This document shows positions 8,423-58,596 of a stretch of DNA of 64,000 nucleotides, piece by piece. The DNA comes from Acidimicrobiia bacterium (lineage in GTDB: Bacteria; Actinomycetota; Acidimicrobiia; Spongiisociales; ZC4RG35): contig JACCTH010000021.1 of assembly GCA_013812505.1 (NCBI GenBank), forward strand, positions 24,104 to 88,103, written 5' to 3'. The notes beneath the pieces are model-generated. The model did not search any database. It was not told the DNA's origin and saw nothing but the letters and a program-made list of their open reading frames with translations. Position numbers and translations under genes: made by a program. Numbering within the stretch: position 1 is the stretch's first letter; the number at the start of each line of letters is the position of its first letter.

Positions 8423-8472
8423 GCGAACCCTGGGTTCGCAGCGTTGTTGTACAACGACCCCAGCCCACAGAA
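8423..8472. repeat. Left inverted end of nuclease gene: hairpin A (GCGAACC-CTG-GGTTCGC) plus hairpin B (CGTTG-TTGTA-CAACG)
   Basis: 41/50 identical to the reverse complement of 9428-9477 by manual alignment. Confidence 0.85.
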
Positions 8473-8516
8473 TCGAACCCCTTCCAACGCGTCTCGATCT
8501 CTGGCACGGTTGCTCG

Positions 8517-9419
8517 ATGAAGATCGACTACGAGTTGGGTGAGCTCGCGACATCACAGGCGGGCTATCTCGGTCACGACCAGGCCGTGAGCCGTGGGCTT
8601 AGCGAAGGTGCCATCCGTTGGCGGGTGGAACAGAACATCTGGGCGCCGGCCGGACGCGGCCTCTATCGCGTCAACGGCATAACCGGCGATTATCGGGGCG
8701 TACTTCGGGGAGCCATGGCAATCCTGCCCGATCCGACCGTGTCACACGAGTCGGCGGCGGAAGCACATGACATGAAGTTCGTGCGAAGAGAACTGGCCGT
8801 CGTTACGGTTCATGCCGGCACCACCCACGAGTTCCCCGGCGTGAAGATCCATCGTTCGATCGATCTCTTTCCCGACCACCGGTCACTTGTCTCCGGCCTC
8901 AACACCACCACGCCAGCTCGAACACTTAATGACCTGGCAGCCGTGCTTCGTCCCGAGCACATGGCACGGGTCCTGGACGAAGAACTGGCCGCCAGTCCCG
9001 GCCTCATCGACGAAGTTCAGACGGTATTCGGAGAAGTGGCAAGGCGCGGACGGAACGGCTCGGGCCTCATGCGATCGCTGCTTGACGAACGGGTTGGTTC
9101 GAGTCTGATCAGTGCGACGAAACTGGAACGTGTCGGGATGAACGTCTTCGACGTTGGCGGACTCCCGCGGCCGGTGTTTCAGTACCCGGCGCCGTGGGAC
9201 CCATCTCGGCGGATCGACTTCGCGTGGCCGTTTTGTCGGGTCGGCTGCGAATGCGATAGCCGTCGTTGGCATACCCGAGTCAACGATTTTCAGAACGATC
9301 GCGCCCGCGACAATCTCGCCCTGAATCACAACTGGCGCATCTACCGGTTCACCTGGGAGGACTTTCGCTTACGCCCTGCGATGGTCGTTGCCCAACTGCA
9401 AGCGGCGCTCGCGGCATAA
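8517..9419 (+). CDS. AbiEi-like N-terminal domain / DUF559 (Vsr-like PD-(D/E)xK) nuclease-family protein
   Basis: N-terminal LATSQAGYL...GRGLYRV, SHESAA, TTPARTLNDLA. C-terminal RIDFAWP..VGCECDSRRWH..DRARDN..WRIYRFTWED. Confidence 0.82.
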   Translation: MKIDYELGELATSQAGYLGHDQAVSRGLSEGAIRWRVEQNIWAPAGRGLYRVNGITGDYRGVLRGAMAILPDPTVSHESAAEAHDMKFVRRELAVVTVHAGTTHEFPGVKIHRSIDLFPDHRSLVSGLNTTTPARTLNDLAAVLRPEHMARVLDEELAASPGLIDEVQTVFGEVARRGRNGSGLMRSLLDERVGSSLISATKLERVGMNVFDVGGLPRPVFQYPAPWDPSRRIDFAWPFCRVGCECDSRRWHTRVNDFQNDRARDNLALNHNWRIYRFTWEDFRLRPAMVVAQLQAALAA

Positions 9420-9427
9420 TTTCGTCG

Positions 9428-9477
9428 TTCTGTGGGCTGGAGTCGTTGTTGTACAACGACCCGAACCCTGGGTTTGC
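9428..9477. repeat. Right inverted end of nuclease gene: hairpin B plus hairpin A
   Basis: TTCTGTGGGCTGGAGTCGTTGTTGTACAACGACCCGAACCCTGGGTTTGC is the inverted counterpart of 8423-8472. Confidence 0.85.
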
Positions 9478-10358
9478 TAAATACCCACCAACCACGCCGC
9501 TCCGCGGACCCCAGACGAGTCGCCGTGGCGGTTCTTCAACAGCGGCGTTTGAACCCTCTCCGAGAACACATAACGGTCCCAGCGGGAGGGGGTTTGGGTG
9601 TAGATCTCGTCGACGTTGCTCATCCCGCCTCCGAGGACGATGGCGTCGGGGTCGAGCACGTTGATGATTGTCGCCAGCCCCCGGGCCAGGCGGTCGCAGT
9701 AATCGGCGAGGTGCGCTGACGCCTCGGGATCATCCCGGCGCGATGCTTCGACCACTTCTTTCGCCGACGCCGCTCCGGAGAGCGAGGCGAAGCCGGTCCC
9801 AGAAAGAAACGTTTCGATGCAGCCGTGAAGACCGCAGTAACACGACGGGCCGGGCAACTCATCTGGGCGCGGCCAAGGCAGGGGATTGTGGCCCCATTCA
9901 CCTGCCACCCCGTTGGGACCGTCAAGCGCTCGACGATCCACCACGACTCCGCCCCCAACCCCGGTGCCAATGATGACCCCGAAGATGACCCGATAGGACG
10001 CCCCCGCTCCGTCAGCCGCCTCCGACAAGGCAAAACAATCGGCGTCATTCCGCAAGACCACCTCGCGGCCCAGTGCGCGCTCGAGGTCGGCGTGGAGAGG
10101 CTTGCCGTTGAGGTAGACGGCGTTGGAGTTCCGCAGAGTTCCACCTGAGATCGACCCGGGAGTTCCGATCCCGATCGCCGCCGCGACCGGTCCGGCCTTT
10201 CCTTCCAGGTCCGTGACCAGTTTCCCGATTGCCCGCAACGTGGCTTCGTAGTCGCCTCGTGGAGTCTCGATCCGCAAACGAGCCGGCTCCGCGCCCAGAG
10301 GATCGAGCACCACCCCTTCGATCTTCGTTCCGCCGAGGTCGATTCCGATTCGATTCAT
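9477..10358 (-). CDS. ROK-family sugar kinase (fructokinase Mak-like), start at ATG 10358
   Basis: MNRIGIDLGGTKIE, NDADCFALSEA, IIGTGVGGG, GEWGH, CYCGLHGCIE, GDSSGVRGAAW. Confidence 0.92.
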   Translation of the reverse strand: MNRIGIDLGGTKIEGVVLDPLGAEPARLRIETPRGDYEATLRAIGKLVTDLEGKAGPVAAAIGIGTPGSISGGTLRNSNAVYLNGKPLHADLERALGREVVLRNDADCFALSEAADGAGASYRVIFGVIIGTGVGGGVVVDRRALDGPNGVAGEWGHNPLPWPRPDELPGPSCYCGLHGCIETFLSGTGFASLSGAASAKEVVEASRRDDPEASAHLADYCDRLARGLATIINVLDPDAIVLGGGMSNVDEIYTQTPSRWDRYVFSERVQTPLLKNRHGDSSGVRGAAWLVGI

Positions 10359-10368
10359 TTTGGCCGGT

Positions 10369-11502
10369 TCACCGGGCGGCCGCCGGATGAACCTCGGCCA
10401 GTAGTTGGTTGAAGTTGGTCGTCGGAGCAAGAACCAGTTCGCCCGCTCCTGTGCGAAAGTCGGTGACATTGATCGAAAACCGATTGACCTGGTCTCGACT
10501 GATCCCGCGATATGCCCAGGCGGTGGCGATCGCGTCGCCAAAAGACCAGCCACTGTCGACCCGCACCGCCCCGGCGACCGCTTCGAGCCGTGAAGAAAGC
10601 GACCCCAACGAACCAAAGTTGGCCAGGGCTTTGGCGAGTTGGAAAAGGATGTCCTGCTGGTGCCGCATCCGATTGAAGTCCGATGACGCCACGAGTTGCC
10701 ATTCACCGTTGATCAGCTCCTCGGTGTTTCTAGATCTCGCCCAAGCCAGTGTGGTGGCACCGTCTGCCCAGATACACCCTCCCGGGAGATCGAGCCCGGC
10801 GTTGATGTCACGGGCAGGATGTTCGGTGCAAATGCCGGTGCCGCCGAGAGCGTTTACCACCCCCGCAAAACCATCGAAACTGAGCCGGGCAACGTGGTCG
10901 ATCGGGATACCAGTGAAACCTTCGACCATCAGCGCGATGAGCTCGGTCCCCGAGGCAAAGTCCGTGCAGCCACCCAGTCCGGCGTTGATTCGACTCCAGC
11001 CCCCGGTGCAGGGATTCGCGACATAGAGGTCGCGAGGTAACGAAACGAGAATCGGGGCCGCTCCGTCGTTGGGTGCCAGCGCCAGAATGATCGTGTCCGC
11101 GCGGACGCCCGACTCGTCGCTGCCAACCCCGAGATAAGCATCGAACATCTCGTCGGGTAGCGGCCGGCCAGCCGCCGCCGGGTTGCTGTATCCCTGCTCG
11201 CGTACGACCACGTCGGCAGCGGTCAGCTCGTCGTCGATTGCCGAGTTGGCGAGCTCACTGGCCGCAAACTTCTCCAGGAGAATCCGCTCGGCCTCAGCCA
11301 GATCCGCAGCGGCATCGGCCACCTCGGCCGCATCCCGCTCAAGCATCGCGGTCGAGGCACGTTGGAGGTTGAACTCTTCTGTTGCCACTGCCTCGAATGT
11401 CAGCCAGATCTGGCTGAAGAAGTATCCGGTGGTTCCGAGGATGACCCCGCCGATCAGGATGACGGTGGCACGAATCGGATGTCGCAACACATAGCCAAGC
11501 AT
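10369..11502 (-). CDS. LytR-CpsA-Psr (LCP) family glycopolymer transferase
   Basis: N-terminal TM. GSDE..RADTIIL, SLPRDLYV, RINA, WARSR, SDFNRMRHQQ. GGAGG SD before ATG 11502. Confidence 0.88.
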   Translation of the reverse strand: MLGYVLRHPIRATVILIGGVILGTTGYFFSQIWLTFEAVATEEFNLQRASTAMLERDAAEVADAAADLAEAERILLEKFAASELANSAIDDELTAADVVVREQGYSNPAAAGRPLPDEMFDAYLGVGSDESGVRADTIILALAPNDGAAPILVSLPRDLYVANPCTGGWSRINAGLGGCTDFASGTELIALMVEGFTGIPIDHVARLSFDGFAGVVNALGGTGICTEHPARDINAGLDLPGGCIWADGATTLAWARSRNTEELINGEWQLVASSDFNRMRHQQDILFQLAKALANFGSLGSLSSRLEAVAGAVRVDSGWSFGDAIATAWAYRGISRDQVNRFSINVTDFRTGAGELVLAPTTNFNQLLAEVHPAAAR

Positions 11503-11562
11503 CAGGCCTCCGGGGGTGATCACGATGCTATTGCGCGAGCGCCGGCGAACGATGGCAGTCGA

Positions 11563-11958
11563 TTACTGAGCGATGAAGACGGTGCCCGTGAAATTGCCCA
11601 CGACTCGACCATCGTCACGTTCCACCAGCACTCGATAGGTGGCCAGCGTCCGGCCACGGTGGATCTCGGTTGCGGTAGCGGTCAACTCGTCACCTGGTTT
11701 GGAACCGGCCGTGAAGACCATGTGGGTGTCGATCGCAGAGGCGTCAGCCTCGTATGAATTCGAGTACAGTGAGAAAGCGCAATCGGCCACGATGAACACC
11801 GCGCCGCCATGCGTCGCCCCATGAAAATTGGTGTGGGTTTCGGTGACGGTCATCGCTACTTTCACGAAGTCATCGCCAACTTCGACCAGTCGAATCCCAA
11901 GGCTGTTCGCGAGCGGATCGGCTTGGAGACGAGCCGATACGCGATCGGCATCGATCAT
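11563..11958 (-). CDS. paaI: PaaI-type hot-dog thioesterase
   Basis: NFHGATHGGAVFIVADCAF motif; C-terminal VVGNFTGT. Confidence 0.78.
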   Translation of the reverse strand: MIDADRVSARLQADPLANSLGIRLVEVGDDFVKVAMTVTETHTNFHGATHGGAVFIVADCAFSLYSNSYEADASAIDTHMVFTAGSKPGDELTATATEIHRGRTLATYRVLVERDDGRVVGNFTGTVFIAQ

Positions 11959-12632
11959 CCCCGTTCGAGCCAGGCTCGGAAGAACGCCCGGGAGTTGGCA
12001 TCCAGGGCCGGATCGGCTTCTTCGAGCCGCGAGCTGTAGTCGTCGTAGTCGATCCCAGCCTGGCCGAGCACCGACCAGTCTTCTTTCCCCCAGCGCTTGG
12101 CCAAATCGGAGTCGGCATCGGGATGGAACTGCACCGCCAACGCCGAGCCGGCGCGGAACGCCTGCGGGTAGAGCTCGCTGTAAGCAAGCAACATCGAACC
12201 GGGTGGGTGGTCGAATGTGTCCTGATGCAGGCTGAAAACTCGGCTGCCAAGGGTCTTCATCACCGGGTCGGCGTCGCCATCCGCGGTCAGCTCCAGATCG
12301 ATCACATTGGCCTCCGGGCGCTCTGCCCGAAATGCCGACCCACCGAGGGCGGCGGCGAGGAGCTGGCTTCCGAGGCAGATGCCGAGGACCGGCACGTCCT
12401 TTTCGACCAATCCGGCCAGCCAGGTTTTCTCCGCCGCCATCCAGGCGTGGCGATCATCCTCGTACGCCCCCATCTCGCCCCCCAACGTCACGACCCGATC
12501 GAACGATTCGGCACCCGGGACTGGGTCGCCCCGATGAAGGTGAAACCTGACGGTTTCCGCGCCGACGCGATGGAGCTCGTCGTCGAGCCGTCCAGTGGTC
12601 TGCTCACAGTGATAGATCACACCTACCCGCAC
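11955..12632 (-). CDS. Type 1 glutamine amidotransferase (GuaA-like stand-alone)
   Basis: TLGGEMG, PVLGICLGSQLL, HQD, VQFHPD triad motifs. Start taken at GTG 12632. Confidence 0.85.
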   Translation of the reverse strand: MRVGVIYHCEQTTGRLDDELHRVGAETVRFHLHRGDPVPGAESFDRVVTLGGEMGAYEDDRHAWMAAEKTWLAGLVEKDVPVLGICLGSQLLAAALGGSAFRAERPEANVIDLELTADGDADPVMKTLGSRVFSLHQDTFDHPPGSMLLAYSELYPQAFRAGSALAVQFHPDADSDLAKRWGKEDWSVLGQAGIDYDDYSSRLEEADPALDANSRAFFRAWLERG

Positions 12633-12666
12633 GAAGGCAACGGTAACGGCCTTTAGGATCGCGACA

Positions 12667-13548
12667 GTGAGAAGGATCGGAGCCGGCAAGGTACGCGACA
12701 TCTATGACCTCGGCGACGACCGCCTCCTCCTCGTCGCCAGCGATCGGATCAGCGCCTACGACATTGTCCTCCCTGACCAGATCCCGGACAAGGGGCGAGT
12801 GCTCACGGCTATCTCCCGGTACTTCTTCGATCTGCTTGACACCCCCCATCACTATCTGAGCACCGACGTCTCGGAGTTTGGTCTCCCGGAATCTGACTGG
12901 CCCGCCGATCCCTCGTTCTTTGCCGGGCGATCGATGGTGGTGCGCAAAGCAGAAGTGGTTCCGGTCGAATGCGTCGTCAGGGGCTATCTCTATGGCTCTT
13001 CGTGGCGTGAGTATCAAGCCGGTGGGGGGCCGTCGACCGAGCAGCTTCCACCTGGCTTGCAACTGGCCGATCGCCTCGCGGAGCCAATCTTCACCCCGTC
13101 CACCAAGGCGACCGAGGGACACGACGAGAACCTCGACGAAGCCGGCGCTCGCAAATTGATCGGCGATGACCTGTACGAAGAGCTCAAAGCGCGTTCGCTC
13201 GAGATCTACCACAAGGCTGCCGAGCACTCTGCCGACCGTGGCGTGATCCTGGCCGACACCAAGTTCGAATTCGGCCACTTCGGCGGCGAGCTCATCCTCA
13301 TCGACGAAGTGCTCACTCCCGATTCCTCCCGCTATTGGCCACGCGACGAATGGAAGCCGGGCAGCGACGTTCCTTCGTTCGACAAGCAGTACGTCCGCGA
13401 TTGGCTCGATCAGGCCCAGTGGGACCATCATCCACCCGCCCCCCATCTCCCGCCGGAGGTGATCGAAGGCACCCGGGACCGATATATCGAAGCGCACGAT
13501 CGCATCACCGATTCGAAGTTCTCCGACTATCTCGCGGAGCATTCGTGA
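12667..13548 (+). CDS. purC: SAICAR synthetase
   Basis: GKVRDIY, SDRISAYD, ECVVRGY, FTPSTKA, DTKFEFG, DEVLTPDSSRYW, SFDKQYVRDWL. Confidence 0.98.
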   Translation: MRRIGAGKVRDIYDLGDDRLLLVASDRISAYDIVLPDQIPDKGRVLTAISRYFFDLLDTPHHYLSTDVSEFGLPESDWPADPSFFAGRSMVVRKAEVVPVECVVRGYLYGSSWREYQAGGGPSTEQLPPGLQLADRLAEPIFTPSTKATEGHDENLDEAGARKLIGDDLYEELKARSLEIYHKAAEHSADRGVILADTKFEFGHFGGELILIDEVLTPDSSRYWPRDEWKPGSDVPSFDKQYVRDWLDQAQWDHHPPAPHLPPEVIEGTRDRYIEAHDRITDSKFSDYLAEHS

Positions 13549-13787
13549 AGGTGACCGTCGCCATCACCAGGCGCCCGGAGATTGCTGATCCGCAGGGCAC
13601 CACGGTGCGGCGCGCCTTGCATGACCTCGGCTTTGCGGAGGTTGACACGGTCCGCTTCGATCGGCTGCTGACGCTTGAGGTTGACGGTTCCGATAGCGAG
13701 ACGATCCGCCAACGGGTGGAGGAGATGTGCGAGAGGCTGCTGGCTAATCCCGTTCTCGAAGACTTCGTGGTGGAGGTCGACCGCTGA
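13545..13787 (+). CDS. purS: FGAM synthase subunit PurS
   Basis: GTG overlapping the purC stop; IADPQGTTV...LLANPVLEDF. Confidence 0.95.
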   Translation: MKVTVAITRRPEIADPQGTTVRRALHDLGFAEVDTVRFDRLLTLEVDGSDSETIRQRVEEMCERLLANPVLEDFVVEVDR

Positions 13788-14428
13788 CCCGTGTCGCCAT
13801 CGCGGTCTTTCCGGGGACCAATTGCGAGCAGGACGTCGCCGAAGCCCTGACCAATTTGGGCGCCGCAACCGATCTCGTCTGGCACGCCGAATCGTCGCTT
13901 GCAGCCTTCGACGCGGTAGTGCTGCCCGGCGGTTTTGCCCATGGCGACTATCTCCGAACCGGTGCGATCGCGGCGCTGTCGCCGATCATGGCCGCGGTCG
14001 CCGGGATGGCACAGGCGGGGCGGCCAGTCCTGGGGATTTGCAATGGCTTTCAAGTCTTGTGCGAGGCCGGCCTGCTCCCCGGCGCCCTGATCGCCAATCG
14101 TGACCTTGCCTTCATCTGCCGTTCGATTGAGGTAGCGGTCGTTGACTCGGGTTCCATGTTGACGGCCGGGCTCGAACCCGGTGAGGTGCTGCGGTTGCCG
14201 CTCAATTCCTATGAGGGCAATTACGTCGACCCGAGCGAGATTGGCCGAGTGGTCCTCAGCTATCGCGAAGACCCCAACGGGTCACAGAACGCCGCCGCCG
14301 CGATCGCCAACGCCGCGGGCAACGTCGTTGGGATCATGCCCCACCCCGAGCGGGCCAGTGCCGAATGGCTGGGATCGGTCGACGGCAATCGCCTGCTCGA
14401 CTCATTCCTCAAAGCCGCCGCGGCATGA
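13784..14428 (+). CDS. purQ: FGAM synthase glutaminase subunit PurQ (CTG start)
   Basis: (L/M)[38 protein letters not shown]. The N-terminus extends upstream of the track's TTG to CTG 13784. Confidence 0.95.
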
Positions 14429-16614
14429 CGCTCGACCAGGAGGAGCTTTCGGAGGAGACGGCTCCAACTCTCCACGGCCAGCTCGGCCTCACCAATGATG
14501 AATATCAACGCATCGTCGGCATGCTCGACCGCGAGCCCCGGCCGGCGGAGCTGGCGATGTTCTCGGTTATGTGGTCCGAGCACTGTTCCTACAAGTCGTC
14601 GCGAGCGCATCTGGGTCGCTTTCCGACGGAAGCTCCTTGGGTGGTGGTCGGACCCGGCGAGAATGCCGGCGTCGTCGACATCGGCGACGGATGGCTTGTG
14701 GCCATACGGATCGAGAGTCACAACCATCCCTCCTTTGTGGAGCCCTTTCAGGGCGCCGCCACCGGGGTAGGGGGGATAATCCGGGACATCTTCACGATGG
14801 GGGCGCGGCCCATCGCCCTTTGGGACTCGCTCCGCTTTGGTCCCCAGGATCAACCCCACAATCGCTACCTGTTCCGGGGCGTGGTCAGTGGCATCGCCTC
14901 CTATGGGAACGCGGTTGGCGTTCCGACGGTGGGCGGCGAGGTGGCCTTCGCCGAGCACTACTCCTCCAATCCCCTCGTCAATGTCATGTGCCTGGGTCTC
15001 CTCCGCGCCGAGGATTTGGTGCTGGCTACGACCGGTCGTCCCGGCAACAGGGCGGTCTTGCTCGGAGCGGCTACCGGCCGCGATGGAATTGGCGGGGCTT
15101 CGGTGCTGGCCTCGGCTTCCTTTGACGAGGTCGCGGCCCGAAAGCGGCCCTCGGTGCAGGTGGGAGATCCCTTTCTCGAGAAGAAGCTGATCGAGGCATG
15201 CCTCGAGCTTTATGAGCGCGACCTCGTGATCGGGATCCAGGATCTCGGCGCCGGCGGGCTCTCCTGTGCGATCTCGGAGCCGACCTCGCGGGCTGGGACG
15301 GGGATCGACGTCGATCTCGATCGGGTGCACACCCGTGAATCCGGCATGACCGCTCCCGAGCTTTTGATGTCCGAATCGCAAGAACGCATGCTGGCGTTCG
15401 TCGAGCCTGCGCTGGTCGACGACGTGTTGGCGGTCGCAGCGAGATGGGAGATCGACGCGTCGGAGATCGGCACCGTTACCGAGAGCTCGGAAGTTCGGGT
15501 CGTCGCCGGCGGTGAACCCGTCGCCCAATTGCCCGCGACTGCGCTGACGCTCGACGCTCCCCGCTACGACCGGCCTCTCGGCGCGCCATCGTGGATGGAG
15601 GACCTCTGGTCGAACACCGTCCATTTCGTGCAGCCGCCCGACATCGCCGGCTCAGTCCTCCAGCTCCTGGCTGAGCCGGAGCTGGGCTCGAAAGCAAGGA
15701 TCTTTGAGCAATACGACCACATGCTTTTCCTCAACACCGTCGTCGGGCCGGGTCATGACGCCACGTTGCTCAGGGTCAAAGGCACTCAAAAGGGCCTCGC
15801 GGTGTCGACTGACGGGGACGGCCGGTTGTGCTACCTCGATCCGCTTCGAGGAGGTTCCCGCCTGGTTTGGGAAGCCGCGCTCAATGTGGCGTTGCTGGGG
15901 GCCGAGCCCATGGCCGTGGTCGACAATTTGAACTTTGGCAATCCGGAGAAGCCCGACGTCATGTGGCAGTTCCGAGAGGTGGTGGAAGGAATCGCCCAGG
16001 CTTGCGAATTCCTGGGCATTCCCGTTGTCGGGGGGAATGTCTCCTTCTACAACGAGACCTCGGGCCTCGACATCTACCCGACACCGGTGATCGGCATGCT
16101 GGGTTTGATCGAGGAACTGCTATTGCCGCCACCAAGGCTCGATCGAGCCGAAGAAGGGATGGCGATCTGGATCGTCGGCACTGACTGGGCCGTCAACCTG
16201 GCTGGATCAGTGTTTGAGAAGGTCACCTTCGGCCATGTCGGAGGGCGGCCATCGGCACCGGACCCGACCATGGGTCGGGCAGTGCTGGGTACGGCCCGAC
16301 GTCTCGCGGCCGCCGGAGCCCCCGTGTTGCACGACATCTCCTCGGGAGGGTTGGCCATCGCCCTCGCCGAGATCTGCATTGCCTCGGGAGTCGGTGCTGA
16401 CATCAGCTACAACGATTGGCGCCACCTCTTCTCGGAGGACCCCCATCGTTTCCTGGTGGTGGCGCCAGAGTCGGTGGAGGCGAACGACCTCGCTCAAGAC
16501 GAAGGTGCTCCGATCCAGCGACTGGGATCGATGGGGGGAGCTGAGCTCCGCCTCGGGCGCTTTACGCTCGACGTCGATGCGATGAGCGACGTCTTCAACT
16601 CGAACTTCGCATGA
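14425..16614 (+). CDS. purL: FGAM synthase subunit PurL
   Basis: [62 protein letters not shown]. Confidence 0.98.
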
Positions 16615-23018: not shown

Positions 23019-23864
23019 ATGACAACTAAACATTCGCGATCGCTGTGGGCGCTCGCGATGATTTTTATGACCGCAGCTTGTGGCGGCGGAGGATCCGATG
23101 ACCTCAACCAAACTCTCAACCTCAACGAGGACCCCGAGTCGACGCTGCTGGTGGTCGAGAGCTCCGGCGGTTTCGTTCCCGTCGAATTCATCGTCGGCCA
23201 GGGACCGACCCTGGTCCTGCAGCGCGATGGCACCGTTATCGGACAGGGTCCGCAGATCGAGATCTACCCGGGACCGCTGCTCGCCAACTGGCAGGAGTCC
23301 CAACTCGACGACGAGACGATGCTCTTCGTGCTCGAGGAGCTCGACGCCATCGGCTTCGCCGAGATCGATCGGGTCGAGAACAACGACATCGTCAACGTCG
23401 CCGACGCACCGACCACCACGGTCACCTTTTACAACCAGGAAGGCGCTCACGAGTTCTCGGTCTATGCGCTCGGAATGGAGACCGAGGTGTCTGACGCCCG
23501 GGTGCCAATCCTCGCCAACCTGGTGCAAGAGCTTTATGACGCCACCTCGACCGGAAGCGGCCAGAGCTACGAGCCAGAAGCCATCCAGGTGGTGGCCACC
23601 GCGGGCGATGACCTCTTCGACGCCAACGATCCCACCGTCAATTTTGTCGACTGGCCGCTTCCCCAAGGTTTCGCCGACATGGCCGAGCTCGGGATCGAAG
23701 GCTGGCGTTGCGCCGCTTACGAAGGGGCCGAGGGCCAGGACCTCCTCGCCATCTTTGGCGAGGCGAACCAAAACACGTTCTTTACCGATGGCGACGTCAA
23801 CTATCGGCTGTTGGTCCGCCCGCTCTTCTCGGGCGAGGAGCCCTGCGCTCCCGTCAATTCTTAA
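23019..23864 (+). CDS. Acidic lipoprotein of unknown function
   Basis: Lipobox MTAAC followed by Gly linker; strongly coding-like codon usage. Confidence 0.75.
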   Translation: MTTKHSRSLWALAMIFMTAACGGGGSDDLNQTLNLNEDPESTLLVVESSGGFVPVEFIVGQGPTLVLQRDGTVIGQGPQIEIYPGPLLANWQESQLDDETMLFVLEELDAIGFAEIDRVENNDIVNVADAPTTTVTFYNQEGAHEFSVYALGMETEVSDARVPILANLVQELYDATSTGSGQSYEPEAIQVVATAGDDLFDANDPTVNFVDWPLPQGFADMAELGIEGWRCAAYEGAEGQDLLAIFGEANQNTFFTDGDVNYRLLVRPLFSGEEPCAPVNS

Positions 23865-23872
23865 GGCGATTT

Positions 23873-23956
23873 TGGTGGCTATACCACCACGCGAACCTAA
23901 GGTTTGCATGGTGGCTATACCACCACGCGAACCTAAGGTTCGTGTGGCGGTATAGC
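23873..23956. repeat. Tandem 36-nt two-hairpin repeat (2 units plus inverted partial) between convergent genes
   Basis: TGGTGGCTATACCACCACGCGAACCTAAGGTTTGCA (23873-23908), a near-identical copy at 23909-23944, then inverted TGGCGGTATAGC. Confidence 0.9.
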
Positions 23957-23957: not shown

Positions 23958-24212
23958 CTAGACGCGGCCTCTGACCTGTCGGTAGATGAGGAGAGCGACG
24001 ATCGCGCCAATGATCGAGCCAATGAGGCCCGCCGCCGAGAACTCGTTGAACTCCCTGTCGGTGAATACGACCGCTAGCAAACCTCCGACGAAGCTGCCGA
24101 CGATCCCCAGAAGGATGGTCGGGAGGATGCCCATGGCATCCTTGCCCGGCACGAGCGCGCGGGCAAGAAACCCGGCGATCAGACCTACGACGATGAACGT
24201 GATGATTCCCAT
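23958..24212 (-). CDS. GlsB/YeaQ/YmgE (transglycosylase-associated) membrane protein
   Basis: IVVGLIAGFLARALVPG...LGIVGSFVGG...SIIGAIVAL; GAGGAGG SD. Confidence 0.9.
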   Translation of the reverse strand: MGIITFIVVGLIAGFLARALVPGKDAMGILPTILLGIVGSFVGGLLAVVFTDREFNEFSAAGLIGSIIGAIVALLIYRQVRGRV

Positions 24213-51423: not shown

Positions 51424-51540
51424 ATGGTGGCGTCGCATGCCACCCGTTCGATAATCGATCTCACGGAGACGAAGAATCTCGACCGGATCATCGCCTCCGA
51501 GACCGAGCGATTTCGCCAGCGAATGGCACGCTCGCCTGGG
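51424..51540 (+). pseudogene. 5' remnant of a gene (probably class III aminotransferase-like)
   Basis: AAGGAG SD and ATG 51424. MVASHATRSIIDLTETKNLDRIIASETERFRQRMARS then runs into antisense of the SBP gene. Confidence 0.5.
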
Positions 51541-52249
51541 CGGGGTTGGCCACACCGTTTCGCATCAAGGCCATATAGAGCGTCTCCCGATAGTCGTCGT
51601 AAAGCCCGGTGATTCCCTTGTACTTGGGGTTCCAGAACACGTCCCAGGGGTTCTCGAGGTCGAGAACGTCGGCGTCGTCGACCAAATCGGTCCTCCAACC
51701 GATGCCGGTCGGGTAGACCACATATGGAACGGTGTATTGCGACCCCTCGTCATAGAAAGGATCGGCGAGCTGTGGCCACACGTTCGCCAGGTTCGGTAAA
51801 TAGTCTTGGTTAAGGGGCTGAATCAATTTTCCTGCCACAACCTTGGGCACAGACTGCGCAGTTGGGAACCACACGTCGTAGCTGACCTCGCCCGAGAGGA
51901 GTTTCGCCAGAGCTTCCTCTTCGTTGAAAAACGTGGTTAGTGCGATTTCCACTCCCAGTGCTTCCTGGGCCGCGACCACCGTGTCGGGATTTATGTAGTC
52001 GGCCCAGTTGTAGAGCCGCAGCGGCCCCTCCTCAGGCGACATCCCCGACGCGATAGCGGTGTTGTCCTCAAACAGAGGCTGGCCAACCGGACTGGCCGGG
52101 GTGCCGATGGCGAGCTCAGTGGCGACAAAGTCGGCGCCGCCGCACGCCGCCAGGACGGCGGAGATCGTCGGAAGCGACACGCCCATAGCCATTGCCCGCC
52201 GGATGAATTGGCGGCGGGTGACGCCGTCGAGACGGCGAGGAGTTGTCAT
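51488..52249 (-). pseudogene. Truncated PotD/PotF-like polyamine ABC substrate-binding lipoprotein (Tat signal)
   Basis: TRRQFIRR, LAAC, LYNWADYI, PFYDEG..YTVPY..TGIGW, WDVFW. The C-terminal lobe is missing after NGVANP. Confidence 0.8.
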
Positions 52250-52262
52250 CTGATCCTCCCTA

Positions 52263-52280
52263 TTGAACGAGTGCTCAGTT
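52263..52280. promoter_or_regulatory. Putative TetR operator (second copy)
   Basis: TTGAACGAGTGCTCAGTT in the SBP/TetR divergent spacer. Confidence 0.5.
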
Positions 52281-52332
52281 GGAAAGATAACCATGAACGG
52301 CTCCGAATGGATGCGTCGATAGCATCCATTTC

Positions 52333-52944
52333 ATGGCCCGCCCAAGCATGACCGAGGAACGCCACCGCCAGATCCTCGAGGCGGCCGCCGCCGTGATCGC
52401 CGAGCGTGGAGTGTGCGACGCCCGGATCAGCGACATCGCCACCCGGATCGGGACGAGCCCGGCCCTGATCCTCTATTACTTCCCCGGCAAGGACGCGTTG
52501 CTGGCCGAGGCGCTCGCCTATCGCGACCAACAGTTCTTTGACAGCGTTGCCTCAGAGCTGACCGAGGCCGACAGCCCCAGCCGACGGCTCGAGGCGCTGA
52601 TCGAAGCGAGCTCTCCGCCCGACGAACCCCTCGAGCAAGACAGCGAGTGGCTCCTCTGGCTCGATGTCTGGACCCGTTCCCGGCATGACGACACGCTCGC
52701 CAAGACCCGGATGAGGATGGACAACCTCTTTCGGGCTGCAATCGAAGAGATCGTTTCTGACGGCATCGAGAAAGCGGACTTTCAGTCTGTCGCCGTGAAG
52801 GATTTCGCCATCAACCTCTCTGCATTGATCGACGGACTGGCGATCCAGGTCCTGTTGAAGGATCCGGCGGTCGACTCGGCCACCATGCGCCGGCTGTGCC
52901 TCGGCTTCGCTAGAACCCAGCTCGGCATGTCCATCAGGGTCTGA
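52333..52944 (+). CDS. TetR-family regulator (BetI-type C-terminus)
   Basis: ARISDIATRIGTSPALILYYFPGKDAL; LWLDVW; LIDGLAIQ. Confidence 0.92.
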   Translation: MARPSMTEERHRQILEAAAAVIAERGVCDARISDIATRIGTSPALILYYFPGKDALLAEALAYRDQQFFDSVASELTEADSPSRRLEALIEASSPPDEPLEQDSEWLLWLDVWTRSRHDDTLAKTRMRMDNLFRAAIEEIVSDGIEKADFQSVAVKDFAINLSALIDGLAIQVLLKDPAVDSATMRRLCLGFARTQLGMSIRV

Positions 52945-53017
52945 GAATGGGCAAAGTCTGAGGATGGGGCAAGGTCTGGAACATGGGCACGGTCTTAAGG
53001 ATGGGCAGGGTCTGACG
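52927..53017 (+). repeat. Five degenerate 17-20-nt tandem units (consensus ATGGGCAnGGTCTGAGG)
   Basis: Units start at 52927, 52947, 52964, 52983 and 53001. Confidence 0.75.
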
Positions 53018-55027
53018 TTGGGGGACCTCGCCCCTCTGCTCGAAGCGCGGTCGATTGCCGTGATCGGCGCCTCACCAAAGCTGGGCTCCGTTGGCCATCA
53101 GGTGTTGGTTCAGCTCGAGCGCGGCGGCTTCACCGGGTCGATCCTTGCCATCAATCCCAACTACCCGGACATGCTGCCAACCCTCGACCAGCCGGTCGAC
53201 CTTGCCGTCCTCGCGATTGCGAATCGTCACCTCGAATCACAAGTCGAGGTCGCGCTGGCCGCGGGCACCCGGAGCTTTCTGATCTTTGCGAGTTGCTACG
53301 GCATCGCGAGTAACGGCGATCCGCTGCAAGTGTGGCTCTCGCGGCGCTTGGAGGGCATACCCGTCTGCGGCGGCAACGGTATGGGATTTCTCAACTTGAC
53401 CCGTTCGGTGTGGGTATGCGGTTTCCATCAACCCCCCGATTTACAACGAGGCCGAGTGGCTTTCATCTCGCATTCGGGATCGCTGTTCTCGGCGATGTTG
53501 CACAACCACCGCCACCAGACGTTCAACCTCGTGGTGTCAGCGGGGAACGAGCTCACGCTTACCCAAGCCGACTATGCCAACTATGCCCTCGACCAGGAGG
53601 AAACGAGGGTGATCGCTATGTTCACCGAAGCGGTCCGTGACCGGGAAGCCCTGAGCCGGGTCTGGACGCGCGCCAACGACCGAGACGTCCCGGTCATCGT
53701 TTTGAAAACAGGTCGCAACGAAGCCGGCGCCGCGTCGGTGGCTACCCATTCGGCTGGTCTGGCAGGGGCTTATGCGCCGTTCGTCGCGTTTGCCAGTGCG
53801 CACGGGGTGCATCTGGTCGAAACGATGGACGAGATGATGGACACGATCGCGCTGTTCGACTCAAAGCACCGTCCGACGACTCGCGCCTTGGGCACGGTCC
53901 ACGATTCCGGTGGGGAGAAAACCCACCTGATCGATCTCGCCGGCGAGCTGGGAATCGAGTTGGCTGCCGTCGGACCACCGACGGCGGACCGCTTGCTTGC
54001 GGTGCTCGATGACGGTCTCGAGCCTGCCAATCCGGTCGATGCCTGGGGTACGGGCCGAGCCTCGCCGGAGGTTATGGGCGAGTGTCTCGGGGCCCTCGCC
54101 GATGACCCGGCGGTCGGGGCGGTCGCGTTCGCCGTCGACCTCACCACGGAGGAGCATTCCGCCACCGATTACGCCGACATCGCCCTCAAGGCGGCGGCAG
54201 CCACAGAGAAGCCGCTCTTCGTCCTTTCGCATTTGTCGAGCGCGGTCGACCCGGTGCAGGCCCGGACCCTGGCGAGGGCAGAGGTCCCATTGCTGCGCGG
54301 CACCGCGACCGGCTTGCGAGCTGTCGCGCACCTTCTTGATCATCGGCGAGTGACAAAGTCGGCACCTCCCGTGCCACCCGCAACGCTCGATCGTTGGCGA
54401 CTACGCCTCAGCCAGGGGATCCTCAACGATGTCGAGGCGCTCGAGCTCCTTTCGGACTTCGGCATCCCGATCGAGCGCCTCCATCGAGTGCCCAACATGT
54501 CCAAAGCCGTCGAGCTTGCGGGGAAAATCGGCTATCCGGTCGCGGTGAAGGCAGTCGGGCTGATCCACAAGACCGAGCACAACGGCGTCCGCACAAACCT
54601 TCGCAACGCCGAATCGCTGTCGGCGGCCTGGCGAGCATTGCGGACCCTCGAACTTCCCCTGGCGATTCAGCGCATGGTTCCGGGCGGGATCGAGATTGCC
54701 TTGGGAATGGTCAATGATCCTCAGGTCGGTCCGGTGATGCTCGTGGGCACTGGCGGCGTCCTCGTCGAATTGCTCCGCGACCGGGTGCTGATCGTGCCTC
54801 CGATCGATCACGCCGCCGCCAAAACAGCGTTGGGACAACTTATGGTCGGGCCGATACTGGCGGGGTATCGCGGTACGGACCCGCTGGCGACCGACGGCTT
54901 GGTCGAGGCGCTGGTTGCGTTCTCCGGCCTGGTCCACCACCTTGGTGACCAGTTGCAATCGGTCGATGTCAATCCGCTCGTCGTCCATTCCACCGGCCTG
55001 GCGGCAGTCGACGCTCTCGTTTTTTGA
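52964..55027 (+). CDS. NDP-forming acyl-CoA synthetase (acetate-CoA ligase family)
   Basis: SIAVIGAS, GGNGMG, ISHSG, VSAGNE, LKTGR..ATHS, NPVD, GYPVAVK, HKTE, DVNPL. True start may be TTG 53018. Confidence 0.9.
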   Translation: MGQGLEHGHGLKDGQGLTLGDLAPLLEARSIAVIGASPKLGSVGHQVLVQLERGGFTGSILAINPNYPDMLPTLDQPVDLAVLAIANRHLESQVEVALAAGTRSFLIFASCYGIASNGDPLQVWLSRRLEGIPVCGGNGMGFLNLTRSVWVCGFHQPPDLQRGRVAFISHSGSLFSAMLHNHRHQTFNLVVSAGNELTLTQADYANYALDQEETRVIAMFTEAVRDREALSRVWTRANDRDVPVIVLKTGRNEAGAASVATHSAGLAGAYAPFVAFASAHGVHLVETMDEMMDTIALFDSKHRPTTRALGTVHDSGGEKTHLIDLAGELGIELAAVGPPTADRLLAVLDDGLEPANPVDAWGTGRASPEVMGECLGALADDPAVGAVAFAVDLTTEEHSATDYADIALKAAAATEKPLFVLSHLSSAVDPVQARTLARAEVPLLRGTATGLRAVAHLLDHRRVTKSAPPVPPATLDRWRLRLSQGILNDVEALELLSDFGIPIERLHRVPNMSKAVELAGKIGYPVAVKAVGLIHKTEHNGVRTNLRNAESLSAAWRALRTLELPLAIQRMVPGGIEIALGMVNDPQVGPVMLVGTGGVLVELLRDRVLIVPPIDHAAAKTALGQLMVGPILAGYRGTDPLATDGLVEALVAFSGLVHHLGDQLQSVDVNPLVVHSTGLAAVDALVF

Positions 55028-55039
55028 TAGGTTCTCCGC

Positions 55040-55792
55040 ATGTGTTTTGACTACGACGCCACTCCACCTGTCATCGCCGGGGCCGCGACCGACCATCGCG
55101 ACCTCGTCTTGACCGCCGACGATGGCAACCTGTTCCTTGCTTTCGAAGCCTTTGCCAACCAAGGCGGCGCCACCGGGGTTGTCGTGTTGCCGGACGTGCG
55201 CGGGATCTTTCCGTTCTACACCCAACTCGCCGATCGTTTCGCCGAGCAGGGCCACGACGCATTGACGATCGACTACTTCGGCCGAACGGCTGGACGTGAG
55301 ACGAGGCGGGAGGATTTTCCCTTTCGGGACCATGTCGAGCAGACCACCTTTGAAGGCGTGCGTCTCGACGTTGCCGCCGCCGTTGCCCGGCTACGCGAAA
55401 CGTCCAAGGACCGGCGCATCTTCACCATCGGTTTCTGCTTCGGGGGCTCGAATTCGTGGCATCAAGCGGCCAACGGCCATGGACTGGCGGGCGCGATCGG
55501 TTTCTATGGAGTGCCTGGCCGCGCCTGGCCGGCCGGGGCGCCGACGTCCATCTCGGCCGCCGCCGAGATGACATGCCCGGTGCTCGCCCTCATCGGCGGC
55601 GACGACCAGTCGATCCCCCCGGAAATGGTGGATGAGTTCGATAAGGCGCTCACTGCGGCCAGAGTCGAGCACGAGATCAAAGTTTACGAAACCGCCCCTC
55701 ACTCGTTCTTCGACCGCAAGCAAGAGCAATTCCAGAGCGAGTCGGAGGATGCCTGGCGTCGGACCTTGGATTTCATCGCCAAGCACTCGTGA
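55040..55792 (+). CDS. Dienelactone hydrolase family protein
   Basis: PDVRG, GFCFGG nucleophile, GGDD, APHSF. Confidence 0.93.
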   Translation: MCFDYDATPPVIAGAATDHRDLVLTADDGNLFLAFEAFANQGGATGVVVLPDVRGIFPFYTQLADRFAEQGHDALTIDYFGRTAGRETRREDFPFRDHVEQTTFEGVRLDVAAAVARLRETSKDRRIFTIGFCFGGSNSWHQAANGHGLAGAIGFYGVPGRAWPAGAPTSISAAAEMTCPVLALIGGDDQSIPPEMVDEFDKALTAARVEHEIKVYETAPHSFFDRKQEQFQSESEDAWRRTLDFIAKHS

Positions 55793-56991
55793 CCACTTGG
55801 TCCAACTGGGTCGGCAACCAGTCCTTCGCTCCCCGACAAGTCGTAGCCACCGCAGACGAAGAGTCGGTGCAGGAGCAGGTGCGGGCGGCTGTCGCCGGCA
55901 GTTATCGGGTACGGACGTTTGGGACCGGGCACTCCTTCACTCCGATCGTTGAAACCGACGTCTTGCTCGACACGACAGCATTGCGCGGCATTGTCGAGAT
56001 CGATGAACCGGCACGGCGGGTGCGGGCGCTGCCCAAGACGACCATCGGCGATTTTGGCAAGCCGCTCTGGGAAAGAGGGCTGGCGCTCGCCAACCAGGGC
56101 GACATCGACACTCAGTCGATCGCGGGCGCCGTCGCCACCGCCACCCACGGTTCGGGCCGCCGCCTCCCCAACCTCTCGGCCACGGTCACCGGTGCCCGGC
56201 TAGTCGACGGCACCGGGGAGATCGTGGTGATCGATGCCTCTCATCCCGACCTGCCAGCACTGCAAGCGTCGATCGGGCTCATGGGCATCATGACCGAGCT
56301 CGAGATCGAGGTCGTTCCTGCCTACGAGCTCGCCGCCCGTACCGACGTCCTACCTTTTGCCGAGATGCTCGAGACCTTTGCCGACGACATCGATCGATAC
56401 CGTCATTACGGCTTCTTCTGGATGCCGACCGATGCTTCGGCGGAGCTCTACAACTTGAGTGGCGCCGGCGCCGACGATTGTGTGCTCAAGCGCTATTTAG
56501 AAGTCGCCCCGGGAACTGATCCCGCCGACCTTCCCGAACACCATCGTCTCGGACCCGCCTTCGAGATTTATCCGATGGTGTACGACCCCAACTTTCATGA
56601 AGTGGAGTACTTCCTCCCTCTCGATCAAGCCCGGGCGATTCTGTCGGAGATGCGCCAGCTGATGTTCGAGTGGTTACCGCTCAGTGTTTATCCGTTGGAG
56701 ATCCGGGTGGTCGCCGCTGACGAGGCCTGGATAAGCCCTAACTACCAAAGGGAGAACCTGGTCGTGTCAATCTCGGGAGAGCCGGGGACCGACTATTGGA
56801 CGTACCTGCACGCGTGCGACCAGTTGTTTGCGGAGTTCGCCGGTCGACCTCACTGGGGGAAGATTCACTTCATGACGGCGTCTCGGCTGGCTGGGCTCTT
56901 TCCCCGCTACGACGAATTCGTCCAAACCCGGAAACGATTCGACCCGAAGGGTGTCTTTCTGAACGATCACACCCAAGCCCTGTTCGCTTAG
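55789..56991 (+). CDS. FAD-linked oxidase (aldonolactone/alditol oxidase, ALO family)
   Basis: WSNWVGNQ, GTGHSF, NQGDI..QSIAGA.ATATHG, GRPHWGK, DPKGVFLN. Confidence 0.92.
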   Translation: MTTWSNWVGNQSFAPRQVVATADEESVQEQVRAAVAGSYRVRTFGTGHSFTPIVETDVLLDTTALRGIVEIDEPARRVRALPKTTIGDFGKPLWERGLALANQGDIDTQSIAGAVATATHGSGRRLPNLSATVTGARLVDGTGEIVVIDASHPDLPALQASIGLMGIMTELEIEVVPAYELAARTDVLPFAEMLETFADDIDRYRHYGFFWMPTDASAELYNLSGAGADDCVLKRYLEVAPGTDPADLPEHHRLGPAFEIYPMVYDPNFHEVEYFLPLDQARAILSEMRQLMFEWLPLSVYPLEIRVVAADEAWISPNYQRENLVVSISGEPGTDYWTYLHACDQLFAEFAGRPHWGKIHFMTASRLAGLFPRYDEFVQTRKRFDPKGVFLNDHTQALFA

Positions 56992-57002
56992 GGTCCCGGT
57001 TC

Positions 57003-57794
57003 ATGAAGATTCGTGTCGGAGCCCAGCTCCATCCCCAGCAAGGCGACTACGAGGCACTGCGGAGGGCGGTGACCGCGAGCGAGGAGCTCGGGTACGACAT
57101 CGTCTACAACTGGGACCACTTCTTTCCGCTTTACGGCGACCGCGACGGCAAACACTTCGAGTGTTGGACGACGCTCGCCGCATGGGCTGAACAGACCGAG
57201 ACGATCGAGATTGGCCCCCTGGTCGCCTGCAACAGTTATCGCAACCCCAACCTGGTCGCCGACATGGCGCGGACCATCGACCATATCTCCGGGGGACGTT
57301 TCGTCCTCGGCCTCGGGGGAGGCTGGAAGAAACGCGATTACGACGAGTACGGCTACGAGTTCGGCACCGCTGCTACCCGCCTCCGATCGCTCGGGAAGAA
57401 CATGCCGATCATTGAGGAGCGGCTCGGGAAGCTCAACCCCGCTCCCGTCCGCAGAATGCCAATCCTCATCGCTGGAACCGGCCCGACAATCACCCTGCCG
57501 ATCGTCGCCCGCCATGCCGACCGCTGGCACGGCGCCTTTCCGAGCCATGCCGAGGATATGGAGGATCCCATCGCTGTCCTCAAAGGGCATTGCGAAAAAA
57601 TCGGCCGCGACCCCGGCGAAATCATGTGGTCCGTTGGCGTTCAACCCGAGGAGCTCGATCCGTTTCTCGCCAAAGAAGCCTCCACCCTGGTTGAGATGGG
57701 GGTAACGGAATTCACGCTTGGCTTCAACGGACCCCGCTGGGACGTTGGCAGGGGTCGAGATCTACTCGCCTGGCGCGACGACCTCAACGCCTAA
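57003..57794 (+). CDS. LLM-class F420-dependent oxidoreductase
   Basis: WDHFFPL, FECWTTL, YRNPNLVADMARTIDHISGGRF.LG.G.GW. Confidence 0.92.
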   Translation: MKIRVGAQLHPQQGDYEALRRAVTASEELGYDIVYNWDHFFPLYGDRDGKHFECWTTLAAWAEQTETIEIGPLVACNSYRNPNLVADMARTIDHISGGRFVLGLGGGWKKRDYDEYGYEFGTAATRLRSLGKNMPIIEERLGKLNPAPVRRMPILIAGTGPTITLPIVARHADRWHGAFPSHAEDMEDPIAVLKGHCEKIGRDPGEIMWSVGVQPEELDPFLAKEASTLVEMGVTEFTLGFNGPRWDVGRGRDLLAWRDDLNA

Positions 57795-57863
57795 GCATAT
57801 TTCTCCCCCAAAGGACTATCGCTTTACCTGGACCTGACCTGCGCAAACTCCTCGCGTACGCGT

Positions 57864-57968
57864 GATTTGTCCTGTGGCGAACGCTCAAAACCAAATCTGT
57901 CCTGTAGCGAACGGTACTCGTTCGCTACAGGACGAATTTCCCAACAAGCGTTCCTGTGGCGACAAATC
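57864..57968. repeat. Nested palindromic REP-like cluster
   Basis: Direct units at 57865/57895 (30-nt period); perfect 15-bp stem at 57899-57933; outer inverted arms at 57864-57885 / 57947-57968. Confidence 0.85.
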
Positions 57969-58068
57969 CGTCTGTCCATCGCAGGGAAGGGAGTGGCGTA
58001 TCCAGCCCACTCGAATAGGAACAACCTTGGTCCCCGAATCTGTCGGGCCTGGCGCGTACGATCCGGCC

Positions 58069-58554
58069 ATGGACTTACCGATCGATGTTGTCCGCAGCCG
58101 TCGTAGGAAGCGCACCATCGCCGCCTATGTCGCCGACGGTCGAGTTCGGGTGATGCTGCCGGACGGACTGCCGGCCGACCAAGAGGCCAAACTGGTGAAG
58201 GAGATGGCGGCCAAGGCGATCCGCCGCTTTACGTCTACCCAGGTCGACCTGGCGGCTCGGGCTGGCTCGCTCGCCCATCGCTATGACCTGCCGAGCCCCG
58301 AATCGATCGAATGGTCCGACCGCCAGCTGACTCGTTGGGGGTCATGTTCGACCGATTCTCGGCGGATACGCATCTCCCGACGGCTCGCCACCATGCCGCG
58401 TTGGGTCCTCGACTGGGTGATCATCCATGAGCTCGCCCATCTGGTGTTCGCGAATCATGGCCCGGGTTTCCAAGCCTTGGTTGCTCGCTATGAGCTTGGT
58501 GAGCGCGCCGAGGGCTATCTGATCGCCAAAGCCGAGGAGCGAACTAAACCTTAG
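58069..58554 (+). CDS. YgjP/M48-like metallo-hydrolase (DUF45)
   Basis: RSRRRKRT, RWGSCS, VIIHELAHL..NHGPGF. ATG at 58069. Confidence 0.9.
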   Translation: MDLPIDVVRSRRRKRTIAAYVADGRVRVMLPDGLPADQEAKLVKEMAAKAIRRFTSTQVDLAARAGSLAHRYDLPSPESIEWSDRQLTRWGSCSTDSRRIRISRRLATMPRWVLDWVIIHELAHLVFANHGPGFQALVARYELGERAEGYLIAKAEERTKP

Positions 58555-58596
58555 GTTCCAGGGGTGGTCTGGCCACCACCAGAATCTTTAGGTTTG
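58545..58596. repeat. Degenerate A-B-A two-hairpin repeat between convergent genes
   Basis: Reverse complement contains GGTGGCCAGACCACCCCTGGAACCTAAGGTTT, similar to GGTGGCTATACCACCACGCGAACCTAAGGTTT at 23874. Confidence 0.7.

Follow-up and report, generated by a model that had tools for sequence, protein, structure and literature searches.

What are the short two-hairpin repeats that stand at gene ends in a stretch of the genome of a soil bacterium of the Acidimicrobiia, and how are they related to the nuclease-like gene that two of them enclose? The stretch (the window; 64,000 nt in all) is G000:C84:24104-88103 and lies inside the source assembly G000, which comprises 2.82 Mb in 115 contigs with a G+C content of 62.6% and a completeness of 93%. 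An earlier note on the letters of the window had described alternating hairpins, A and B, and had proposed that sub-families of them are matched to different nuclease paralogues. In our analysis the two-hairpin repeats proved to be genuine and dispersed over the genome. They form two related modular families of palindromic units that resemble repetitive extragenic palindromes (REPs), and nuclease genes stand between inverted copies of them. We judge it moderately probable that the units are the cognate DNA of single-copy nucleases built from an AbiEi-like and a Vsr/EDxHD-like part, and that they are copied and converted in a homing-like, nuclease-driven manner, analogous to the partnership of REPs with REP-associated tyrosine transposases (RAYTs).

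Two families of three-module repeats

The repeat loci in the window, and the gene that two of them bracket, are the following.

8422..8474, plus strand: family-1 unit, left bracket of the nuclease gene; A at 8423-8439 is GCGAACCCTGGGTTCGC (centre 8431), B lies at 8442-8456 (centre 8449) and A* at 8462-8472 (centre 8467) is AGCCCACAGAA; from nhmmer and sequence
8517..9419, plus strand: gene P0001 (P1), 300 aa, with an AbiEi-like N-terminal part and a Vsr/EDxHD-like C-terminal nuclease domain
9425..9477, minus strand: family-1 unit, right bracket, inverted; A* centre 9433, B 9451, A 9469
23855..23956, minus strand: family-2 array, on the plus strand A*'-B-A-B-A-(partial B), with a 36-nt period; from nhmmer and sequence
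58544..58596, plus strand: family-2-like A-B-A' unit, the second A degenerate and with a 1-nt insertion; from nhmmer and sequence

Comparison with our census indicated that the earlier note had covered all four repeat loci of the window. The five A cores (centres 8431, 9469, 23899, 23935 and 58552) and the five B hairpins (centres 8449, 9451, 23881, 23917 and 58570) that it listed were present in the sequence as claimed. It did not contain the third module, A* at +36, nor the fact that the units at 8422-8474 and 9425-9477 are inverted copies which bracket one gene with A* inward.

For the census, G000 was searched with nhmmer profiles and overlapping matches were merged into loci. This gave 108 merged loci, among them 57 full family-1 units (55 of them indel-free) and 36 full family-2 units; short, palindromic, mostly extragenic and present in many copies, the repeats are REP-like. 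In both families a unit of about 50 nt (~51 nt) consists of A, B at +18 and A* at +36. A is a perfect 17-bp palindrome. A* is a half-degenerate copy of it, which aligns with A base for base, keeps the left half and has the right half altered identically in the two families. In family 1, A is GCGAACCCWGGGTTCG, with the core AACCCWGGGTT, and A* is AGCCCACAGAA. In family 2, A is AACCTWAGGTT, B is TGGTGGCATAGCCACCA and A* is CGCCTTAAGAA or a variant with a GGTT end; here A* is often missing, and A-B-A units or (A-B)n arrays with a 36-nt period occur. Open frames traverse the units, which have no stop codons in the A-to-A* direction.

The abundance of the motif is far from what base composition predicts. 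AACC-N3-GGTT occurs 151 times in G000 against 33 expected, and 115-116 of these sites use the four centres CTG, CAG, TAA and TTA, where about 2 would be expected. Hairpins of at least 5 perfect pairs with a loop of 3-7 nt were then scored at offsets of 12-30 nt from the A core. A perfect-stem hairpin was centred exactly 18 nt away at 71 of the 116 four-centre A cores, whereas every other offset gave at most 1, so the fixed 18-nt spacing that the earlier note had read from five pairs is enriched genome-wide. Among the 35 remaining AACC-N3-GGTT sites none had such a hairpin, and of 5000 random positions 45 did. Exact A cores within 120 nt of each other were always 36 nt apart (15/15).

The same note had claimed a conserved geometry with a variable B sequence, and this description was borne out, since A never varies while B changes in sequence and yet stays paired. 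By our reading of the 57 full family-1 units, B falls into types a (25 units), b (14), c (14), d (3) and e (1). Position k=5 of the stem was Watson-Crick paired in 44/57 units, with three pair types (shuffled mean 15.8, maximum 27), and position k=6 in 55/57, with two pair types; the subtypes represent few lineages, however, and the covariation amounts to few independent events. Judged from these sequences, the invariant A looks like a protein recognition site and B like a purely structural requirement.

Replacing the inner C of CCWGG by T on each strand turns the family-1 core into the family-2 core, which is the change that deamination at a Dcm-type site would produce. A reading in terms of Dcm/Vsr repair was dropped, because a search for C5 cytosine methyltransferases (PF00145), positive in 9 genomes of the control search, had no match in G000 (93% complete), and CCWGG was not depleted (ratios 1.05-1.07). 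The resemblance was taken as a formal coincidence.

The nuclease paralogues and their repeats

A span of 1,056 bp separates two convergent stop codons, and the ORF (open reading frame) at 8517-9419 is the only one in it. In Pfam its product came near the thresholds of AbiEi_4 (24.9 bits, cut-off 25) and MTES_1575 (31.6 bits, cut-off 38.2); PADLOC assigned residues 6-168 to AbiEi (E 6e-20), and NCBIfam held no family for P0001. An AlphaFold2 model from 25 homologues reached a mean pLDDT (predicted local distance difference test) of 89.3. In Foldseek searches the N-terminal two thirds (170-200 residues) matched the AbiEi antitoxin 6y8q (E 1e-5) and also Rv2827c, and the last 100 residues matched the catalytic domain of I-Bth0305I, 3r3p (template modelling score 0.78-0.79 on the target), and Vsr (1cw0/1vsr). 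A profile search of PDB sequences returned the same I-Bth0305I catalytic domain, weakly (E 0.04). Residues D234, E245, D247 and H252 were invariant in the 25 sequences. The ratio of nonsynonymous to synonymous substitution (dN/dS) against the orthologues in the closest relative, G009, was 0.13 for P1 and 0.12 for P3, the family-2 paralogue. Taken together, the fold matches, the invariant residues and the dN/dS values indicate that P0001 is maintained and is probably an active nuclease joined to a DNA-binding part. An AbiEii partner gene was not found, the space between the two units holding one ORF; the convergent neighbours were not scanned against family libraries.

The synonymous divergence from G009 was 0.82 for P1, 0.33 and 0.50 for its two neighbours and 0.19 for the family-2 nuclease. 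The faster-diverging nuclease, P1, is the one whose repeats show B replacement (see below), in a comparison of two genes only.

Seven loci of the P0001 family were located in G000 by tblastn, and these paralogues share at most 67% identity. Their repeats, counted with blastn-short, were as follows.

P1 (8517-9419): bracketed by family 1, B type a
Broken paralogue on C96 (67% identity): bracketed by family 1, B type c
P3, the paralogue on C103 (30880-31758; 40% identity): bracketed by family 2
The remaining four, more distantly related: with dispersed repeats of other kinds

A dispersed repeat (7-39 further blastn-short matches) was present in at least one flank of all seven paralogues, compared with 16 of 200 control gene flanks; the association with the nuclease family that the earlier note had proposed is thus upheld in this genome. 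Where full units stand about 1 kb apart with A* inward, the sole gene enclosed is a nuclease, and three such cassettes were found. Besides these, G000 has two tail-to-tail pairs. One, of 2.3 kb, surrounds ordinary genes; the other is a 62-nt doublet (C25:2245-2359) in which two family-1 units, of B type b and an a-like type, lie tail to tail 10 nt apart and enclose no gene. This doublet has the layout of the nuclease cassette minus the gene, and it could be an empty landing site or the remnant of a deletion.

The order of cause and effect might also be the reverse of the one we favour. The repeats would then be independent REP-like elements, and a free-standing homing-endonuclease gene would cut tail-to-tail doublets and be copied into them, so that the repeats are no more than its landing sites. 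The match of the catalytic domain to a true homing endonuclease, the constant position of the gene between two inverted units with A* inward and the geneless doublet on C25 all agree with such a course. However, each paralogue is single-copy and keeps its place in five or more published genomes of the genus, no two near-identical copies were seen at different loci, and potential target doublets are rare (1 in G000). Moreover, the spread of solo units and the in-place replacement of B would be left without an agent, no RAYT having been found. We consider this course distinctly unlikely.

Pairing of nuclease and repeat was followed through the relatives. P0001 homologues occurred in 34 of 41 genomes. 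Flanks were inspected for 51 homologue loci of 30 related genomes, three of them from the unpublished G001, G004 and G027, and 49 loci were evaluable. The upstream and downstream flanks matched each other (at least 30 bits) at 27 of these 49 loci and at 1 of 200 control genes; the former rate is an undercount, as automatic start codons were sometimes placed too far upstream. The exact A motif of family 1 was abundant in 9 of 10 other genomes of the genus, and outside the genus it was found in 7 of 30, with 1-10 matches each. The reversed pattern, used as control, gave 0 in every genome.

On the protein tree, the A core changes with the nuclease clade across the order. The 29-leaf clade that includes P1 goes with CCCWGGG cores (CCCSGGG at one leaf), the 12-leaf sister clade with the C103 paralogue goes with CCTWAGG, CCTAATG or CCTTCGG cores, and more distant nuclease clades have unrelated hairpins. 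The A-core labels were checked by eye, and four labels given to the sister clade by regular expression were chance hits. B behaves differently. Even orthologous nucleases, 84% identical as proteins, have different B types beside them, a in G000 and e in G009. The proposal of sub-families matched to paralogues therefore stood in part: each sub-family is tied to its own paralogue, but it is the A core and not B that separates the nuclease clades. Since B differs at orthologous nucleases and has been replaced in place at orthologous solo sites, it behaves, on sequence comparison, as a structural module that marks lineage rather than as a determinant of specificity.

Within a genome, the solo units tend to carry the B type found beside the resident nuclease. 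In G000 type a is the commonest (25/57 units) and the flanks of P1 are a/a; in G009 type e is the commonest (10/24 units) and the flanks of the P1 orthologue are e/e. In G003, G007, G002 and G008 the dominant B type is that in the flanks of another paralogue, at G003:C92 and G007:C92. P1 itself lies between the same two genes in G009, G007, G002, G003 and G008, and the same locus is also present in the unpublished G004, indicating that P1 was inherited in place.

Gene ends and turnover between relatives

The earlier note had placed all copies at gene 3' ends. This held in the window, and genome-wide in so far as divergent gaps are avoided. Every locus of the window occupies the whole gap from one convergent stop codon to the other; the stop at 23958-23960 was assigned from conservation in relatives. 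The left bracket (8422-8474) begins 2 nt past the stop codon 8418-8420 of ORF 6270-8420, and the right bracket (9425-9477) directly adjoins the stop codon (9477-9479) with which the minus-strand ORF 9477-10706 ends. Furthermore, two stop codons of upstream genes lie inside units, which the earlier note did not mention. The stop of ORF 23019-23864 (23862-23864) falls within A* of the array at 23855-23956, and the unit at 58544-58596 fills the gap between TAG 58552-58554, within its A core, and the convergent stop 58599-58601. Genome-wide, gene context was taken from GC-phase strand calls, which were right for 206 of 379 test pieces, wrong for 11 and uncalled for 162. By these calls none of the 93 units lies between divergent genes, compared with 20% of background gene pairs. 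A gene 3' end lies on the A side in 44 of the 54 cases that could be called, and on the A* side in 29 of 43; both sides thus mostly face gene 3' ends, and a strict orientation of the unit relative to the upstream gene was not supported.

The units are not canonical intrinsic terminators. Read from A to A*, none of the 93 is followed by a U-run (at least 4 T within 14 nt past A*), and in the opposite direction a T-run was found at 8 of 93. A T-run just before A, seen in 10 of 57 family-1 units, was in the examples inspected part of an ordinary terminator directly upstream. No Rfam family matched the window at gathering scores, and a known RNA family was rejected on this ground.

Could the repeats nevertheless have a host function at gene ends, and spread and persist on its account? 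They might form RNA structures at 3' ends, act as terminators that need no U-run or bind a nucleoid protein. The nuclease gene would then lie among them because its AbiEi-like domain uses a neighbouring unit as operator for autoregulation, or because gaps between convergent genes are the one place where it is tolerated. Several observations fit such a role: the avoidance of divergent, promoter-bearing gaps, the many units that span the entire gap between convergent stops, and the conservation of B as a structure. AbiEi represses its own promoter through inverted repeats near its gene, and the N-terminal part of P0001 is AbiEi-like. Family 2 is also static between G000 and G009. On the other hand, U-runs and Rfam matches are lacking to the extent given above, and an operator accounts for the upstream copy but not for the inverted copy downstream. 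A host role gives no account of a separate repeat family for each nuclease clade across an order, or of solo B types that track the B beside the resident nuclease, and orthologous gaps are without a unit in G005, G010 and G008. We think a host role of this kind unlikely as the main explanation.

The gene-end gaps also receive other elements. At the loci L100, L103, L135-L140, L147 and L148 of G005, G009 and G010 they contain other short repeats, namely runs of GTCTTC-like words and a hairpin family with the ends CCATTCTTGCGTA...TACGCAAGAATGG, and the gaps would therefore be shared landing places for several repeat kinds. In the window itself, 57890-57967 is another dispersed repeat, a long hairpin of 78 nt that recurs about 10 times elsewhere in G000 and is numerous in G009. 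Only 17 nt of it match the upstream flank of the C14 paralogue, and weakly (E 0.003), so that a link to this paralogue is suggestive at best. As to local GC skew, the A-to-A* direction coincided with the C-rich strand in 30 units and with the G-rich strand in 13; 50 of 93 units were uncallable, and gene orientation may confound this count.

Turnover was followed by comparing G000 with G009 at 14 orthologous sites with flanks 81-98% identical. Of eight family-1 sites, five were shared and three were filled only in G000. Four of the five shared sites have another B type in G009 but the same A, A* and length; at the fifth the stem is changed on both sides, from CCGTG/CACGG in G000 to CCGCG/CGCGG in G009. 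At one of the G000-only sites 51 nt have been inserted cleanly into the target AACC^CGAGC; the inserted segment begins at GCG of A and stops where A* ends, and this sole clean insertion shows no target duplication. At the other two, G009 has unrelated sequences of 35 and 40 nt instead. Wider comparisons gave a similar picture of change at fixed places. The convergent gap that holds the array at 23855-23956 has an orthologue without any such array in G005, G010 and G008. The site at 58544 is occupied by a family-2-like element in G000 and by a family-1 unit in G009, and has no unit in G005 and G010. At C1:24494 family 2 is found in G000, G009 and G010 and family 1 in G005, and C103:19239 has four different states in four genomes.

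Insertion polymorphism of short units with terminal palindromes is also what miniature inverted-repeat transposable elements (MITEs) would show. The units might be MITE-like derivatives of a conventional insertion sequence, with the nuclease association secondary and the transposase missing from the assembly, which is fragmented (115 contigs, 93% complete) in a way that suits this idea, as insertion sequences often fail to assemble. This appears very improbable to us. No transposase-sized gene bounded by units was seen in G000, and no Y1 transposase was found, although transposase families other than Y1 were not scanned. The single clean insertion is without target duplication, most copies are single units rather than two-ended elements, and the nuclease pairing holds in 30 related genomes.

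Three larger differences were noted beside these comparisons. L024 (G009:C156), which is orthologous to window position 23855, has an extra minus-strand gene of about 1.2 kb between the upstream gene and the family-2 array that is not in G000. At C86:77563-78200, a family-2 unit of G000 is adjoined at its A* end by about 545 nt that G009 lacks. At C51:32253-32696, 443 nt of G000 are cleanly absent from G009, and this segment is unrelated to the repeats.

A possible route of propagation and its known relatives

How, then, might the units and the nucleases act on each other? The explanation we prefer, in which the nuclease drives copying and conversion of its own repeats, draws on the joining in one enzyme of a reader domain from a repeat-binding antitoxin and the catalytic domain of a homing endonuclease. 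The nuclease would recognise the invariant palindrome A, probably as a dimer, and would cut in or beside the unit of its own family. Recombination or repair by the host would mend the break with another copy of the family as template, overwriting the B hairpin in place and keeping the family uniform within a genome. Occasionally a new unit would be seeded at an A-like sequence behind a gene. Each paralogue, flanked on both sides by its own repeat, would be passed on at a fixed locus and maintained by purifying selection. Binding of A, cleavage and repair-mediated copying are what we infer here, and together they would produce the in-place replacement of B, a uniformity that follows the gene-side copy, and new units at A-like sequences.

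Several points weigh against this explanation. The nuclease genes themselves were not seen to move, the P1 locus being fixed in the relatives. B type b, with 14 units, is without a partner gene in this assembly. Type c (14 units), whose partner on C96 is broken, is no more decayed than type a: B retains 6.21 against 5.48 of 7 pairs, A* is exact in 11/14 against 22/25 units, and there is no sign in type-c units of decay after loss of an intact partner. In family 2, whose nuclease P3 is intact, none of the 6 shared sites had changed. The insertion target was read from one clean empty site. A Vsr-type nuclease cannot rejoin DNA, and for this reason every copying step would have to be assigned to host repair. 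Four independent metagenomes carry the cassette nearly unchanged, with contigs that break at the repeats, and among the joints listed (15/93, four metagenomes) none skips a unit or the cassette. Lastly, the association rests on position and on co-variation among relatives whose genomes are not independent of one another.

The closest parallel is the REP/RAYT system. According to Bertels and Rainey (2011, PMC3116915), each distinct repeat group adjoins a distinct single-copy enzyme gene, and the enzyme phylogeny follows the species. The repeats described here are likewise short, palindromic and extragenic, occur in tens of copies and form groups that each lie beside their own enzyme gene; as with REP/REPIN-RAYT, there is one copy of each enzyme gene, those of one genome differ from each other and are mostly inherited vertically, and repeats and enzymes diversify together. 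In contrast to that system, the enzyme has an AbiEi-like and a Vsr-like fold and not that of a Y1/HUH transposase, and the units are mostly singlets of three phased modules (A, B, A*) instead of inverted doublets; the doublets in G000 are one geneless tail-to-tail and one head-to-head pair. A Vsr-type nuclease is also without strand transfer, so that the copying chemistry must differ from that of RAYTs. A RAYT as the agent was rejected, since a search for the Y1 transposase family (PF01797) had no match in G000 (93% complete), while the same search was positive in 6 of 14 control genomes including E. coli.

The second parallel concerns the enzyme. Like the EDxHD homing endonuclease I-Bth0305I, P0001 has a Vsr-fold catalytic domain with a separate DNA-binding part. 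Taylor et al. (2011, PMC3239194) describe I-Bth0305I as a homodimer with a footprint of about 60 bp that is most specific for a 14-bp pseudopalindrome. By analogy, such a preference and footprint would fit a 17-bp palindrome within a unit of about 51 nt. The two domains stand in the opposite order, however, the nuclease of P0001 being C-terminal to the AbiEi-like part. Unlike the genes of EDxHD homing endonucleases, that of P0001 is free-standing at a fixed locus and not in an intron or intein; no copy of it at a new locus was seen in G000 and the relatives, and its presumed sites are dispersed repeats rather than one allele of a host gene. The N-terminal 170-200 residues resemble AbiEi of the type IV AbiE toxin-antitoxin systems and Rv2827c. 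Compared with AbiE, the cassette has a single ORF, the nuclease domain is fused and the inverted repeats are dispersed genome-wide. MITEs and other small repeats (Correia/NEMIS, ERIC) share with our units that they are short, structured, intergenic and present or absent between relatives. They differ in that most copies here are not two-ended, that the one clean insertion is free of a target duplication, that the search for Y1 transposases found none and that a dedicated nuclease gene is bracketed. The cassette itself has inverted ends; solo units are one-ended.

REP-like repeats count among the most frequent features of bacterial genomes that still lack an explanation, and to our knowledge RAYTs are the only enzyme class so far tied to them. 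By analogy, our results point to a repeat-plus-partner-enzyme arrangement that resembles REP/RAYT but has an unrelated enzyme, and G000 offers a clean case of it, with seven paralogues that each have a family of their own. In the parts of the literature covered on DUF559, on REPIN/RAYT with Vsr and on extragenic palindromes of Acidimicrobiia, no description of such a pairing of nuclease and repeat was found. A bolder form of the proposal is possible, though we lean against it: a Vsr-fold nuclease with an AbiEi-type reader may cut a fixed palindrome while repair rewrites the neighbouring hairpin, as a very-short-patch, template-directed conversion drive that would act at dozens of loci and give each paralogue a private repeat population. 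If this were true, the symmetric difference between the A cores CCCWGGG and CCTWAGG would be a readable recognition code of the enzyme family.

If the nuclease drives the hairpin changes, in place, that were observed between sister species, this would be a new, transposase-free route by which short DNA is propagated. It would also give a function to a very large family of DUF559/AbiEi-fused proteins of Actinobacteria and other phyla. The modules A, B and A* of the repeats lend themselves to separate tests, and the two closely related palindromes give an easy start at the bench. Nucleases of swappable sequence specificity are also a matter of practical interest.

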